NCBI RefSeq assembly: GCF_902168175.1
Contig: NZ_CABHOU010000103.1
Coordinates: 545-64,544 of the forward strand
Direction of reading: 5' to 3'
DNA length: 64,000 bases
From: an uncultured Chitinophaga sp.
Lineage (GTDB): Bacteria > Bacteroidota > Bacteroidia > Chitinophagales > Chitinophagaceae
Under the pieces are notes generated by a model. The model was not told the origin of the DNA and did not search any database. It saw only the letters and a program-made list of their open reading frames with translations. Each line of letters opens with the position of its first letter. Position 1 is the first letter of the stretch. The position numbers and the translations under genes are program-made. This document shows positions 37,721 through 61,794 of the stretch, one piece after another.

Positions 37721-38281
37721 ATGAAATACGTTAGCCTGGTGTTGCTTATCGCCTTATCAGCCTGTTCTCCAAAAACTTATCGTACAGGCGATTATTCCTA
37801 TTACCGTAAACAATTTCGCCTGGCAGACAGTTCATTCTTACGTACCGATGGTGTGTATATTGCCGCCGCCGTGTGGACAGATGATAATCCCACCCTGCGT
37901 GCGCCGAAGGAAAAGAAGATACTGCAGTTTTTCCCTGGCGGGCAAACCAACCTGTTTCTCGATATGGGCGACAGCCTTAAAACCGAAGCGGACTTTATCG
38001 GTAAAATAGCAGCAAGGCATAAAGAACAGGGAGCAACGCTGTTTGAAGGGTATTACCGGATCGAAGGTGATCGTATAGCTATTCAACGCGTAAATAACCC
38101 TTTGCGGCAGTTTAACTATGCCTTCGGTCACATTGCACAAGACAGTATCGTGATCCTGAAAGGTGGTATTGAGGGCAGGCAACCGTTCGCAGATAAAAAC
38201 TATCCCGGTATCTATAAAGAATATTACATTTTTATGCCGCTGGATACGGCGGAATTACATAAGTACCCGGCTTACTGGTAA
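37721..38281 (+). CDS. Hypothetical lipoprotein
   Basis: ATG with A/C-rich leader, signal peptide with lipobox LSAC; 186 aa; no family recognised. Confidence 0.75.
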   Translation: MKYVSLVLLIALSACSPKTYRTGDYSYYRKQFRLADSSFLRTDGVYIAAAVWTDDNPTLRAPKEKKILQFFPGGQTNLFLDMGDSLKTEADFIGKIAARHKEQGATLFEGYYRIEGDRIAIQRVNNPLRQFNYAFGHIAQDSIVILKGGIEGRQPFADKNYPGIYKEYYIFMPLDTAELHKYPAYW

Positions 38282-38994
38282 CCGTTGGTGAGCAGTTTTA
38301 GCACATGTTTGTAGTTTTTACCCAGGGGTAACTCTTTCCCGTTTTTTAATTTGATGATGTTGCCCTGAATGTACTGCACGTACTTACGGTGCAGGATAAA
38401 CGATTTGTGGATACGGATAAAGGCATCTGCAGGCAGTTGTTCTTCAAAGCTGCTGAGCGTGCGTGGTGTAAGCAAAAAGGTGGCGCCTTCCCAAATCTTC
38501 ACATAATTACCCAGACTTTCCAGGTAGTGAACAGCTTCGAGATCGAGCAGGATGAGTTTTTTGTCTGATTTGATGTAGATCTGTGCAGGTGGTGCCGGTT
38601 CAGCGTGCGGCAATGTGCCGGGCGTTGGTTGCTGAAGTGTATGCTGCGTCAGTGCGCGGTTTACAGCTTTCAGGAAACGTTCGAAGCGGAAGGGTTTTAG
38701 CAGATAATCGCAAACATCGAGGTCGTAGCTTTCGAGGGCATGTTCTTCGTAGGCAGAAGTAATGATCACGATTGGCGGGTGTTTCAGTGTGCGAAGTAAT
38801 TCGAGGCCGCTTAGTTTAGGCATGCGGATGTCCAGGAAAATAAGATCGACGGAATGTTTGCTGAGGAAGTCGAGTGCTTCTGCCGCGCGGTAACATTGTC
38901 CGGCCAGTTTGAGAAAAGGCACGTCCTCCATATACCGCAGGATAATATCATGGGCCAGTGGTTCATCGTCAACGATAAGACAGCGCATACTCAT
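38272..38994 (-). CDS. LytTR-family response regulator
   Basis: CLIVDDEP, DLIFLDIRMP, TSAYEEHALESYDLDVCDYLLKPF, C-terminal FIRIHKSFI. Its start overlaps the kinase stop (ATGA). Confidence 0.95.
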   Translation of the reverse strand: MSMRCLIVDDEPLAHDIILRYMEDVPFLKLAGQCYRAAEALDFLSKHSVDLIFLDIRMPKLSGLELLRTLKHPPIVIITSAYEEHALESYDLDVCDYLLKPFRFERFLKAVNRALTQHTLQQPTPGTLPHAEPAPPAQIYIKSDKKLILLDLEAVHYLESLGNYVKIWEGATFLLTPRTLSSFEEQLPADAFIRIHKSFILHRKYVQYIQGNIIKLKNGKELPLGKNYKHVLKLLTNGYQ

Positions 38995-59588: not shown

Positions 59589-59616
59589 ACTACAACTTTT
59601 TGTAGTGATCGGGTTA
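59589..59616 (-). promoter_or_regulatory. Putative ECF-sigma promoter of fecR (TAACCC-N14-GTTGTAGT)
   Basis: Matches the susC-upstream element in sequence and spacing; overlaps the sigma gene stop codon. Confidence 0.55.
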
Positions 59617-60162
59617 ATGTTGCCGGTTATTTTTCATGTTTTGCCGGAGCAATTTCAGGCCCCGCTTGAGGTGCGTCTTAAAAGAATTAACGCTGATACC
59701 CATCTCGTCCGCCGCCTCCTTGTAGCGTTTACCCTGTACATATACCATCTGCACCGCCATCTTTTTCTGTCCGGCCATATCGTTAAGCGTGTGCCTTATC
59801 TGACCATAGTAATCAGGATCGGCTTCGCCGGTAGCAGCGGCTTGCTCGGTTTCCTGGGTTTGCGACCAGGCAGCCTCCTTGTCCAGCAGCAGTTTTTGCT
59901 TTTTGAGGTGGTTAAGGCAGCGGTTTTTCACAGCCATGTGTAAATAACCTTTTATCTCCCCGTTAAACTGGAAATACAGCTGCTTGTCCCATATATCTAT
60001 AAAAAAAGACTGCACCAGGTCCTGCGCTTCCTCTTCGTTCTGCAGGAACCAAAAGGCATTGAGGCACAATAGTTTGTAATATTTCAGGAATAGCGCATCA
60101 TACGCCGTAAGGTCGCCGGTTTTGAGCCGCTGGATCAGGTCCGTGTCCTCGTATTGATGCAT
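59614..60162 (-). CDS. ECF RNA polymerase sigma-70 factor
   Basis: AYDALFLKYYKLL, EAQDLVQSFF..IW, YLHMAVKNRCLNHLK, YKEAADEMGISVNSFKTHLKRGLKLLR. Confidence 0.93.
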   Translation of the reverse strand: MHQYEDTDLIQRLKTGDLTAYDALFLKYYKLLCLNAFWFLQNEEEAQDLVQSFFIDIWDKQLYFQFNGEIKGYLHMAVKNRCLNHLKKQKLLLDKEAAWSQTQETEQAAATGEADPDYYGQIRHTLNDMAGQKKMAVQMVYVQGKRYKEAADEMGISVNSFKTHLKRGLKLLRQNMKNNRQH

Positions 60163-60267
60163 TTATACAATTAATACCGTCTTTGTGGGCGGTTGATTAC
60201 TGGTTGATTGGTGGAATAGTACCTTCTTCGAACATCCGGTTTCAAGATAGAGAATATTGTTTGAAAT

Positions 60268-60297
60268 AAAAAAGACCGCCAGTTACAGGCGGCCTCT
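60268..60297 (-). terminator. Intrinsic terminator on the minus strand, upstream of the ECF sigma gene
   Basis: Minus strand GGCCGCC-TGTAACT-GGCGGTC followed by TTTTTT. Confidence 0.75.
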
Positions 60298-60400
60298 CTT
60301 CTTTAACCCAAAAAAGCATAGATTATGAGAAGGTACATTATAATAATTTCTATAGGTACAGGCAGGTTTTCAAAAAGATATGGTCAAAATTTGCACGCTG
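60268..60400 (-). ncRNA. Candidate small RNA ending at the 60268 terminator (5' end unknown)
   Basis: No protein gene ends here. The segment before the terminator reads CAUAAUCUAUGCUUUUUUGGGUUAAAG, the reverse complement of a translation-start-like sequence. Confidence 0.35.
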
Positions 60401-60486
60401 AAAAATCTAAATTGACGCGTACATTTCTCTATTAAGTGTTTTAGATTTTGGCTGATAACACATCAAACATTAAACCCCAAAAAAAT

Positions 60487-60988
60487 TCGTTCACAGGTAA
60501 GAGATAAATAGCCCTCTCAAAAAAAGAACAGATGATAAAATGGAATATCGTTCACAGGTATAGAATAAATAGCAACTCTTAAAAGCATAGAATATGGCAG
60601 GCTTGTTTATTAATTGTATACCACCGGCACGGGATATACAACCGGTTTAAACTTGCAGAAAATGTAATTCGGCTTAATCCTGAAAACGGTATCATAGGCA
60701 GCGAAAAAGTAACGTTCCATGTTTAGTTTTTTAATCAGTTTTTAAAAAGTTATTTCCAATAGGTGTTAAAAAGTTAAAATAGGATCGTCACAGGACGTAA
60801 TAAATAGCTTGATCGTTTGCGCTCGTTTTAATGTGCCCCGGGCATTGTATTTGTAAAATGACTCGTTTGTTTTAAAATAAACGGGCGGAACTTTTCTCTT
60901 CGACATCTCCTGTTTTCACTGTTCCTGCCCGTTTATGTACACCACCATGTTTCTCGTACATTCAAATCAGCGGCAAGGGATAAATAGC
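60487..60988. repeat. Dispersed motif TCGT(T)CACAGG-N-ATAAATAGC, three full copies and one partial
   Basis: 60487-60512, 60548-60573, 60785-60808, and partial GATAAATAGC at 60979-60988. Confidence 0.8.
60610..60720 (-). CDS. Small ORF, 36 aa (MERYFFAAYDTVFRIKPNYIFCKFKPVVYPVPVVYN)
   Basis: ATG preceded by an A-rich Bacteroidetes-type initiation region (TTAAAAAACTAAAC-ATG); below the ORF-track length cutoff. Confidence 0.4.
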   Translation of the reverse strand: MERYFFAAYDTVFRIKPNYIFCKFKPVVYPVPVVYN

Positions 60989-61130
60989 CTATCTGTTTGC
61001 TCATGCTTCATTTGTCTTATGACTGTTGAAGGTTTTCTTCTCTCATAACAGCTGTAGGTTCTTCGAAGGATATGGACAAATATTCGTTTCACTGTTTCCC
61101 AATCAGACTTATGCATATAATAATTTCTTT

Positions 61131-61658
61131 TTATCGTGTTGCCAGTTCCTGCGTCCAGAAGTAACTGTAGCGGCCTATGCCTGTTTCAGTAACCTTTGCG
61201 TTCATTAGTGCTTTGCAGTGCGTGGGGCTTTTCAGCCAGCCAGCAATCACCTCCTGTTCAGTAATATTGCCGGCCGCAATGTTTTCGTAGTATGTTTTCC
61301 AGTTGTAACCCAGGGCTTTGATCCTGGCACCCGCATCGCTACCATTTTTGCCGGTGTGGCTGATGTAGTTGCTGTCGCTCATCTCTTTACTGTGTAACCA
61401 GGCTGCTTTCTCTAACCGCTGGCTCCATTTTACCGGTGTTACAGCAGGCATTGTTTCGCTTCCGCAGTTGCAGCCTTTGCTTCGAGCATCATTGATCAGC
61501 GCCAACATCACATCTCTGTTTAATGTATTGGTATAGGAAAAAACAGAATCTTTACCGAGGGCCGAAGCGTTTTCTACGGTTATTTCTGTCAGCGGCTCTT
61601 TTGAACACGAAGCCATCAGGCAGATTATCGGAATTAAGAACGTCAGGCGGAATTTCAT
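61131..61658 (-). CDS. CAP (SCP/PR-1) domain lipoprotein
   Basis: Lipobox ASC, LINDARSKGCNCG, WSQRLEKAAWLHSKEM, HTG..GS, ENIAAG, GWLKSPTHCKALM, YFWTQEL. Confidence 0.92.
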   Translation of the reverse strand: MKFRLTFLIPIICLMASCSKEPLTEITVENASALGKDSVFSYTNTLNRDVMLALINDARSKGCNCGSETMPAVTPVKWSQRLEKAAWLHSKEMSDSNYISHTGKNGSDAGARIKALGYNWKTYYENIAAGNITEQEVIAGWLKSPTHCKALMNAKVTETGIGRYSYFWTQELATR

Positions 61659-61794
61659 TTTTTATTTGGATATGGTCAAAGCCTCGTTTTGGGTAGATGA
61701 TGTTGCGGGCACTTTCCAGGTTACTTCAGTTTTTCATTCACCCCGCTTATCCATCAATCTGAAACAAAGGTATACCCGCCGCAGGCCGTAAAGA

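Follow-up and report, generated by a model that had tools for sequence, protein, structure and literature searches.

A minus-strand terminator preceded by an anti-start-site motif in three Chitinophaga genomes

Which RNA, if any, ends at a terminator on which no open reading frame (ORF) directly ends? The question is raised by a 968-nt gap (60163-61130) separating two minus-strand genes in the DNA of an uncultured Chitinophaga. The window, meaning the whole stretch of 64,000 nt that was analysed, is positions 545-64544 of contig C103 in a 6.65-Mb genome (GC 47.7%). Near the left end of the gap a hairpin and a run of T's suggest that transcription of the minus strand stops there, and the nucleotides preceding the hairpin are the reverse complement of something that looks like the start of a gene. 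A first-pass annotation supposed that the locus encodes a small RNA (sRNA) of a paralogous family, analogous to the FopS RNAs of Bacteroides, and that its place beside the sigma factor gene of a polysaccharide utilization locus (PUL) is meaningful. I argue here that the best reading is the structured end of a minus-strand RNA bearing an anti-start-site motif, a combination that is more than chance, and that neither the family nor the PUL is its proper company.

The terminator and the block that precedes it

Read on the minus strand, the hairpin (60294->60264) consists of GGCCGCC (60294->60288), the 7-nt loop UGUAACU, GGCGGUC (60280->60274), and then, without interruption, U6-A-U3 (60273->60264). 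An AAGAGA/UCUUUU extension of the stem brings the whole feature to 60264-60298. A GC-rich stem-loop with a U-tract directly behind it, on the transcribed strand, is what defines a Rho-independent terminator. The same DNA folds less well when read in the other direction (-9.7 kcal/mol on the plus strand vs -19.5, z = -5.5, on the minus strand), there being an A.C mismatch where the minus strand has a G.U pair.

Relatives of the locus were sought by blastn of the gap against 36 and then 103 Chitinophaga genomes. The same block was found in two of them, G092 and G103, the latter being C. sedimenti KCTC 52590. In a three-way alignment both keep the hairpin, as ACACCGCC/GGCGGUGU in G092 and AGCCGCC/GGCGGCU in C. 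sedimenti. Two outer pairs of the stem covary across the three species (G.U / A-U / G-C and G-C / C-G / A-U), and in all three the T-tract follows the hairpin on the minus strand only. The G.U pairs are likewise specific to that strand. The hairpin is best read as the Rho-independent terminator of a non-coding minus-strand RNA end peculiar to this lineage.

What transcript might reach it? The nearest conserved minus-strand ORFs upstream are one of 36 aa (60610-60720; MERYFFAAYDTVFRIKPNYIFCKFKPVVYPVPVVYN), which ends at 60610, 315 nt from the hairpin, and a gene for a CAP-domain lipoprotein, which ends at 61131. No further terminator-like site was reported between 60610 and the hairpin, so the transcript of the 36-aa ORF, the nearest coding gene, could end there. 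The first-pass annotation's remark that no protein gene ends on the terminator has to be qualified to this extent. The small ORF is rich in aromatic residues, is present in exactly the same three genomes as the terminator and its block, and has 36 codons in each. Differences among the three fall mostly at third positions (7/6/15, 6/5/17, and 3/3/15 by codon position), and Pfam and NCBIfam gave no match to it.

Reading back from the terminator, one comes upon the sequence that prompted the idea of an sRNA. On the plus strand CTTTAACCCAAAAAAGCATAGATTATG (60301-60327) has the look of a translation start, and its reverse complement is what precedes the minus-strand terminator. It contains a 16-mer, AAAAGCATAGA(T/A)TATG, at 60312-60327, which recurs with 15/16 identity at 60581-60596. 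The genome has exactly two copies of AAAAGCATAGAWTATG, and both are inside the gap. TTAA(A)CCC(C)AAAAAA occurs at 60303-60315 and 60471-60485, with one other copy genome-wide. In all these particulars, hairpin included, the first-pass annotation described the DNA correctly. The block is also exceptionally well conserved. The anti-start-site block CUUCUCAUAAUCUAUGCUUUUUUGGGUUAA (60303-60333, minus strand) has a perfectly conserved core at 60308-60328 (CCAAAAAAGCATAGATTATGA), 21 nt that are identical in the three species and form the longest invariant run of the gap. As background, 43% of aligned gap columns are identical three ways.

How good is the likeness to a start region? A position matrix built from 5,300 long ORFs of the genome shows enrichment of A at -14 to -10, as expected for Bacteroidota. 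By this matrix, the block read on the plus strand ranks, among real start regions, at the 93.5th percentile in this species and at the 99.8th in the relatives, whose version outscores as a start region all 2,235 randomly sampled ATGs. Its TAACC (-21/-22) and its A-run (-15 to -10) coincide with positional peaks in real start regions. The likeness first noticed by eye is borne out by measurement.

It might then simply be a start region, and the first-pass annotation had itself named a functional plus-strand ATG at 60325 as the observation that would overturn its proposal. The frame from that ATG runs for 36 codons here and for 3 in both relatives (ATG AAA AAG TAA), and the indels that separate the species in this frame (10, 2, and 2 nt) are not triplets, so the ATG heads no conserved ORF. 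A conserved plus-strand promoter to the left is not possible either, because homology to the relatives stops at the hairpin. With no conserved ORF and no such promoter, and with G.U pairs and a T-tract found on the minus strand alone, a minus-strand RNA is the most likely functional molecule, and on it the block would be an anti-start-site motif. The earlier preference for the minus strand is also supported by the invariance of the block and by the folding energies.

The second copy of the 16-mer lacks a terminator. It belongs to a 61-nt tandem duplication specific to this species (units 60487-60547 and 60548-60608) and lies within the second unit; the relatives have a single unit. They have only a weaker second copy of the motif, GGCACAGATTAT(A/G)G (GGCACAGATTATRG).

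The terminal 78 nt are predicted in all three species to form a two-tier 5' stem-loop followed by the terminator (-24.3 to -25.9 kcal/mol, z = -3.4 to -5.1). The predicted stem-loop (60298-60332, minus strand) is built around the block, with inner stem UAAUCUA/UGGGUUA, apical loop UGCUUUUU, and outer stem CUUCU/AGAAG, and several G.U pairs in it are possible on the minus strand only. Strict covariation of this stem-loop was considered and rejected. Since MAFFT does not align the arms correctly and the outer stem pairs again with a shift of register, covariation is claimed for the two terminator pairs and nothing else. That a functional element of a minus-strand RNA ends at this place is, in my judgment, quite likely.

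Neighbours, distribution, and known small RNAs

The gap is bordered by the CAP-domain lipoprotein gene (61131-61658) on one side and by an ECF (extracytoplasmic function) sigma gene (59614-60162) on the other, both on the minus strand. Downstream of the sigma gene are a FecR anti-sigma gene and then a gene for an STN-type SusC/TonB receptor. With which side does the element belong? Homology to the relatives (~70% DNA identity) begins exactly at the terminator (60264) and extends to the right across the gap, the CAP gene, and a histidine kinase gene. There is none to the left. What lies beyond the terminator in C. sedimenti is a CorC/DUF21-type gene, and G092 has a lipoprotein gene between such a gene and the terminator. 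Orthologues of these flanking genes are found in the present genome at ~36.2-38.3 kb of the window, ~22 kb from the terminator. The intervening block (~38282-60263) holds a LytS/LytTR-ABC unit and a HexNAc-type PUL with its sigma and anti-sigma genes, and is absent from the syntenic site in both relatives. It could be either an insertion in this genome or a loss in the relatives. No repeat of the terminator hairpin was seen at its left border (38230-38480).

The converse comparison agrees. In 20 other Chitinophaga genomes with an orthologous sigma/anti-sigma pair, the upstream region is unrelated and the CAP gene is not adjacent, which makes the PUL side the wrong anchor. Judged by synteny, the element travels with the block of the CAP gene and the 36-aa ORF and not with the PUL. 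The significance that had been seen in the neighbouring PUL sigma gene disappears, and correcting the context averts annotation of the element as a PUL regulator, which would be wrong.

The idea of a paralogous family fares no better. The element occurs in 3 of 103 Chitinophaga genomes and is single-copy in its own. A genome search for paralogues, suggested at the outset, found none: an nhmmer profile of the three orthologues hit only the locus itself (E = 2e-13), the next best match having E = 1.3. Under covariance model R2 the three orthologous loci score 85-99 bits and nothing else in the 103 genomes exceeds 34 bits. Neither that model nor a pattern search allowing up to 3 mismatches found anything beyond the three species. 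An exact 19-mer search of genome contigs returned C. sedimenti plus chance matches only, and an exact 21-mer search of metagenome contigs returned one chance match, within a coding region. The second local copy, being without a terminator and inside the duplication, does not make a family.

What was said at the outset of the FopS RNAs is correct. B. thetaiotaomicron has 14 FopS paralogues (12-15 per genome in general), and the family is conserved across Bacteroidaceae. Its members combine a terminator with a seed at a free 5' end, and they repress translation of susC by base-pairing to the start codon or its vicinity so as to block initiation (PMC11697453). A canonical sigma-ABfr promoter (TAnnTTTG -7 box) directly upstream and binding by the RRM protein RbpB are further marks of the family. 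The RNA proposed here would resemble FopS and GibS in being short, in ending with a Rho-independent terminator, in having a conserved 5' part antisense to a start region, and in the mechanism proposed for it, the same block of initiation. In the relatives' version UUUUUCAU ... GGUUAA even has almost the same spacing, 14-15 nt. The element differs from both in being in Chitinophaga, not Bacteroidaceae, and in being present as one copy, not 12-15. Unlike FopS, its motif is predicted to lie inside a stem-loop and not at a free 5' end, no canonical promoter was found for it at a fixed distance, and it shows neither a link to SusC/PUL starts nor a preference for them in its own genome. The Rfam model of FopS (RF04319) scores 20.3 bits (E = 7.3) in the window and 24.0 bits in C. 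sedimenti, against a gathering score of 56, and other, unrelated sequences of the same genome that combine an antisense start with a hairpin reach 26-30 bits. Membership in FopS is rejected in view of these sub-threshold scores and the single copy. Rfam at permissive thresholds returned sub-threshold matches only (FopS, Phe/Thr leaders, GcvB, RcsR1), driven by the terminator and the U/A-rich flank.

Two other kinds of sRNA invite comparison. CpxQ and SroC are derived from the 3' UTRs (untranslated regions) of enterobacterial mRNAs. The present element is like such RNAs in its conserved seed, joined to the own terminator of a coding mRNA, which in this case would be that of the 36-aa ORF. FopS-14 of B. 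thetaiotaomicron is also a 3'-UTR-derived sRNA (PMC11697453). In contrast to all three, the putative parental gene is a tiny ORF that matches no Pfam or NCBIfam family. DonS, the other comparison, is a cis-encoded PUL sRNA of Bacteroides whose gene is divergent from the PUL to which it belongs (PMC11697453; citing Cao et al. 2016). The candidate likewise lies beside an ECF-sigma/anti-sigma/SusC unit. Unlike DonS, which is divergent from and syntenic with the PUL it represses, it precedes the sigma gene and shares its orientation, and its adjacency to a PUL is specific to this species, no PUL adjoining the element in either relative.

Chitinophaga does possess something that resembles a paralogous sRNA family. 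Running the FopS model over the whole genome exposed tandem arrays (C108:19319-20397; C41:26430-27759) and dispersed copies of an element of ~64 nt, further loci being C95:64543-65714 and 82445-82508, C108:52904-53154, and C25:83282-83345. A spacer separates its GGUUUUUCAUAGGAUAUGGUUAAAA seed from a GC hairpin with a U-run behind it, and in the arrays the period is 253-319 nt. Each copy has a TAnnTTTG -7 box, TTCAC boxes at ~-52 and ~-73, and a GGTTAAAT-N4-GTTAACA box at ~-105. Covariance model R1 of this family finds 4-18 copies in 103/103 Chitinophaga genomes, 18 of them in the present one, with compensatory variants of the hairpin, and almost nothing elsewhere in the order. An Rfam search with the family gave no match at E <= 0.1. 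Its seed has complements of at least 10 nt in 51 start regions, an excess over shuffles (12.5 +/- 7).

Is the element of the gap one of these? The two share the layout UUUUUCAU ... GGUUAA ... GC-hairpin ... U-run, and both seeds are antisense to start regions. They differ in that the candidate's spacer is 15 nt (family 7), in that it is single-copy and confined to three species, and in that the family has a conserved TTCAC-box promoter. Homology to the minus-strand candidate was rejected by nhmmer and by model R1, which scores it at 8.5 bits (E = 4.6) as compared with 68-90 bits for true members. It is the multicopy family, and not the candidate, that is the closest Chitinophaga analogue of a paralogous sRNA family. 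Present in every genome of the genus examined and without an Rfam match, it is also the more useful lead for RNA regulation outside Bacteroides.

The family touches the locus in another way, from the opposite strand. Within the 64-kb window model R1 is significant only on the plus strand of the element's locus, and there it matches the seed only, at 60365-60429 (28.9 bits, E = 9e-5) and 61057-61134 (20.5 bits). The first of these contains a seed-only copy without a hairpin, GGTTTTCAAAAAGATATGGTCAAAA (60365-60389, plus strand; nhmmer E = 9e-4), whose complement on the minus strand would pair with the family seed. The homologous sites in G092 and C. sedimenti score 24.9-25.9 bits, and in these relatives 20-21 of 21 seed positions pair. 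There are further plus-strand seed-only matches at 61057-61080 and, weakly, at 61656-61681 opposite the CAP start (TTTGACCATATCC...ATG). The predicted duplex between the family seed and the CAP start region has an energy of -23.5 kcal/mol, and this match is conserved in 2/3 species only. The seed-like copies share a promoter-proximal GGTAYAGG with real family genes. They may be truncated plus-strand family genes, or they may be minus-strand pairing sites in transcripts of the CAP locus.

Possible targets and the rival explanations

If the element works as FopS and GibS do, then it should work along the following lines. The last ~75-100 nt of the transcript would constitute a structured sRNA, in which the 5' stem-loop carries the invariant U-rich anti-start-site sequence, complementary to TAACC-A6-N9-AUG-AAAAA, and is followed by the terminator. 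The RNA would arise either from its own promoter near 60363-60380 or as the 3' end of the mRNA of the 36-aa ORF, possibly by processing. It would pair with the A-rich translation start regions of other mRNAs and block their initiation. A possible -7 promoter box, TATCTTTTTG (60371-60380, minus strand), is kept as TATCCTTTG in G092 and as TATCTTTTG in C. sedimenti. It overlaps the plus-strand seed-like copy of the multicopy family.

Targets were sought by scanning duplex energies over 7,987 candidate start windows, which proved uninformative, and by counting start regions with perfect complements of at least 10 nt. By the latter count the relatives' motif has complements in 98 start regions, a clear excess over shuffles (26 +/- 13). 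In the present species two U-to-C changes have turned UUUUUCAU into CUUCUCAU, and with them the generic complementarity to AUGAAAAA starts has been lost. Of single sites, the best lies at the start of a ROK-family sugar kinase gene (C59:171931), with a perfect complement of 14 nt that extends to 17 bp with one G.U. This start region (C59:171890-171960), which overlaps the end of the preceding ORF of the same orientation, has the only other GCATAGATTATG in the genome. The site is conserved in both relatives with one mismatch, and in the present species a single change on either side, mRNA and RNA alike, improves the pairing. The ROK kinase start is the best predicted partner of the RNA, a marginal one, and should be taken as a lead and not as a result.

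Several observations weigh against a structured, trans-acting RNA. The best duplex energy, -26.6 kcal/mol, is equalled or beaten by 11 of 20 shuffled seeds. The motif of the present species shows no excess of complements of at least 10 nt (21 vs 16.6 shuffled, p = 0.24), and the 14-nt match to the ROK kinase is marginal when the longest match is compared with that of shuffles (p = 0.067). The motif is predicted to be partly base-paired and not single-stranded, with part of it (UGCUUUUU) in the apical loop. Covariation amounts to two base pairs, seen in three sequences. A canonical TAnnTTTG promoter at a fixed distance from the motif was not found; the best box, ~35 nt upstream (TATCTTTT[TG], or TATC(Y)T2-4G, 60380->60371), is a 7/8 match, and the length of its T-run and its spacing vary among the species. 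Finally, the 109 SusC-like start regions are not preferred in the duplex energies (p = 0.95). The start of the adjacent susC pairs poorly (-8.5 kcal/mol, 76th percentile), and pairing of the block in cis with the starts of the 36-aa ORF, CAP, sigma, FecR, and SusC genes is in every case unremarkable. The supposition that the RNA pairs with PUL start regions finds no support in these in-silico comparisons. That it acts in trans on start regions of any kind I regard as a tentative idea, rather more doubtful than not.

What else might the terminator and its block be? The main rival, somewhat unlikely in my estimation, is that all of this operates in cis. The terminator would end a 3' UTR in which the block and its weaker copy farther upstream, AUAAUCU(G/A)UGC, serve as binding sites for a protein or as stability sites, with no pairing in trans. 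In the same explanation, and to be doubted to the same degree, the hairpin would end the transcript of the 36-aa ORF, or read-through from the CAP gene, and so shield the promoter downstream. Such a promoter is indeed probable, to judge from a -7-like TCTATCTTG (60238-60252, minus strand) immediately downstream of the terminator, which would serve the ECF sigma gene. The explanation gains from the lack of any reported terminator-like site between 60610 and the hairpin, from the perfect coincidence of ORF and element in three genomes, from the motif's occurring twice in the putative transcript of every one of the three species, and from target predictions no better than shuffles. Against it, the block matches real start regions in positional detail, as one would not expect of a protein-binding site, and the 3' UTR between the 36-aa ORF and the block is poorly conserved and accommodates a duplication of 61 nt. 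An improbable alternative looks to the multicopy family: a longer minus-strand transcript would be the decoy, sponge, or target of those sRNAs by way of 60389->60365 and two more sites, in the CAP 3' UTR and at the CAP start, and the terminator would simply end that RNA. The confinement of significant R1 matches in the window to this locus, the conservation of the first site, and the energy of pairing at the CAP start all speak for it, while the GGTAYAGG shared with real family genes suggests truncated genes of the other strand, the CAP start site is missing from the conserved set in one species, and the invariant block at 60308-60328 goes unexplained.

It is highly improbable that the plus strand is what matters, whether as the true start of a small protein (36 aa here) or as a start-stop mini-ORF. 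The high start-region scores and the identical ATG AAA AAG TAA of the two relatives would fit, but the ORF is conserved in neither length nor sequence, the hairpin with its G.U pairs and T-tract belongs to the minus strand, and homology ends where an upstream promoter should begin, since what lies to the left is, in this genome, the sigma gene read in antisense and, in the relatives, other genes unrelated to it. It is too much to believe, finally, that the element is a FopS-family or DonS-type paralogous sRNA repressing the susC of the adjacent PUL. The architecture (UCAU ... GGUUAA ... terminator) does resemble that of FopS, the Rfam model aligns from end to end, and the element does adjoin an ECF sigma/anti-sigma/SusC unit. 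Set against these are the low scores, matched or exceeded by other antisense-of-start-plus-hairpin sequences, the single copy, the lack of synteny with the PUL, and a susC start that pairs poorly and to which the element is not antisense.

The preferred reading joins two propositions, that the hairpin is the terminator of a lineage-specific RNA of the CAP/36-aa-ORF block, and that this RNA ends in a structured anti-start-site element which pairs with start regions. I would place the two together just on the doubtful side of an even balance. A broader and frankly speculative view, which I consider unlikely, is that Chitinophaga has an anti-start-site sRNA system of its own, independent of FopS, made up of the genus-wide multicopy family, with its conserved and regulated promoter, and of lineage-specific single-copy RNAs such as the present one, related to it by design and not by descent, with the CAP/36-aa-ORF locus as a node of the network. 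Since the minus strand of the CAP locus has three sites complementary to the multicopy seed, the terminal RNA could have two roles, that of an anti-start-site regulator (e.g. of the ROK sugar kinase) and that of a sponge or target of the multicopy sRNAs. Should the RNA prove real, pairing with A-rich start regions that lack a Shine-Dalgarno sequence, so far shown only for sRNAs of gut Bacteroides (GibS, FopS), would extend to soil Chitinophagaceae, and anti-start-site sRNAs would seem to have arisen repeatedly in Bacteroidota. The element itself carries modest weight, being confined to three species and no regulator of a PUL.

Other features of the gap

One might imagine that the 36-aa ORF and the RNA form a type I toxin-antitoxin pair. 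This was rejected: the peptide is neither hydrophobic nor transmembrane, and the block does not pair with the peptide's start region.

The 61-nt unit contains TCGTTCACAGGTA-N-ATAAATAGC, of which the TCACAGGTAAG part is invariant in the three species. Degenerate further copies of the motif are present at ~60784 and ~60966, and CACAGG-N-ATAAATAGC is found nowhere else in the genome.

On the sigma side, the pattern TTCTCTATCTT ... ATCAACCA stands upstream of about 10 of the 20 orthologues of the sigma gene that were compared within Chitinophaga. Many of the orthologous upstream regions also have GTGAACA(A/G)TG and CCTGTAAT boxes. The pattern and the boxes are candidate promoter or leader elements of this group of sigma genes.

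Towards the CAP gene there is a conserved long-range hairpin at 60877-60936 (ATAAACGGGCGG... / ...CCCGTTTAT), with a loop of ~30 nt and with TTTATTTTAAAA following on the minus strand. It is likely to be a terminator or a structured 3'-UTR element of the CAP gene. Two more invariant blocks are found in the gap, at 60440-60451 and 60937-60964. TTTAGATTTTGG resembles a -7 box of the plus strand, from which transcription would yield an antisense RNA of the 36-aa ORF, and the TACACCACCATGTTTCTCGTACA block carries TGTAC/GTACA arms.

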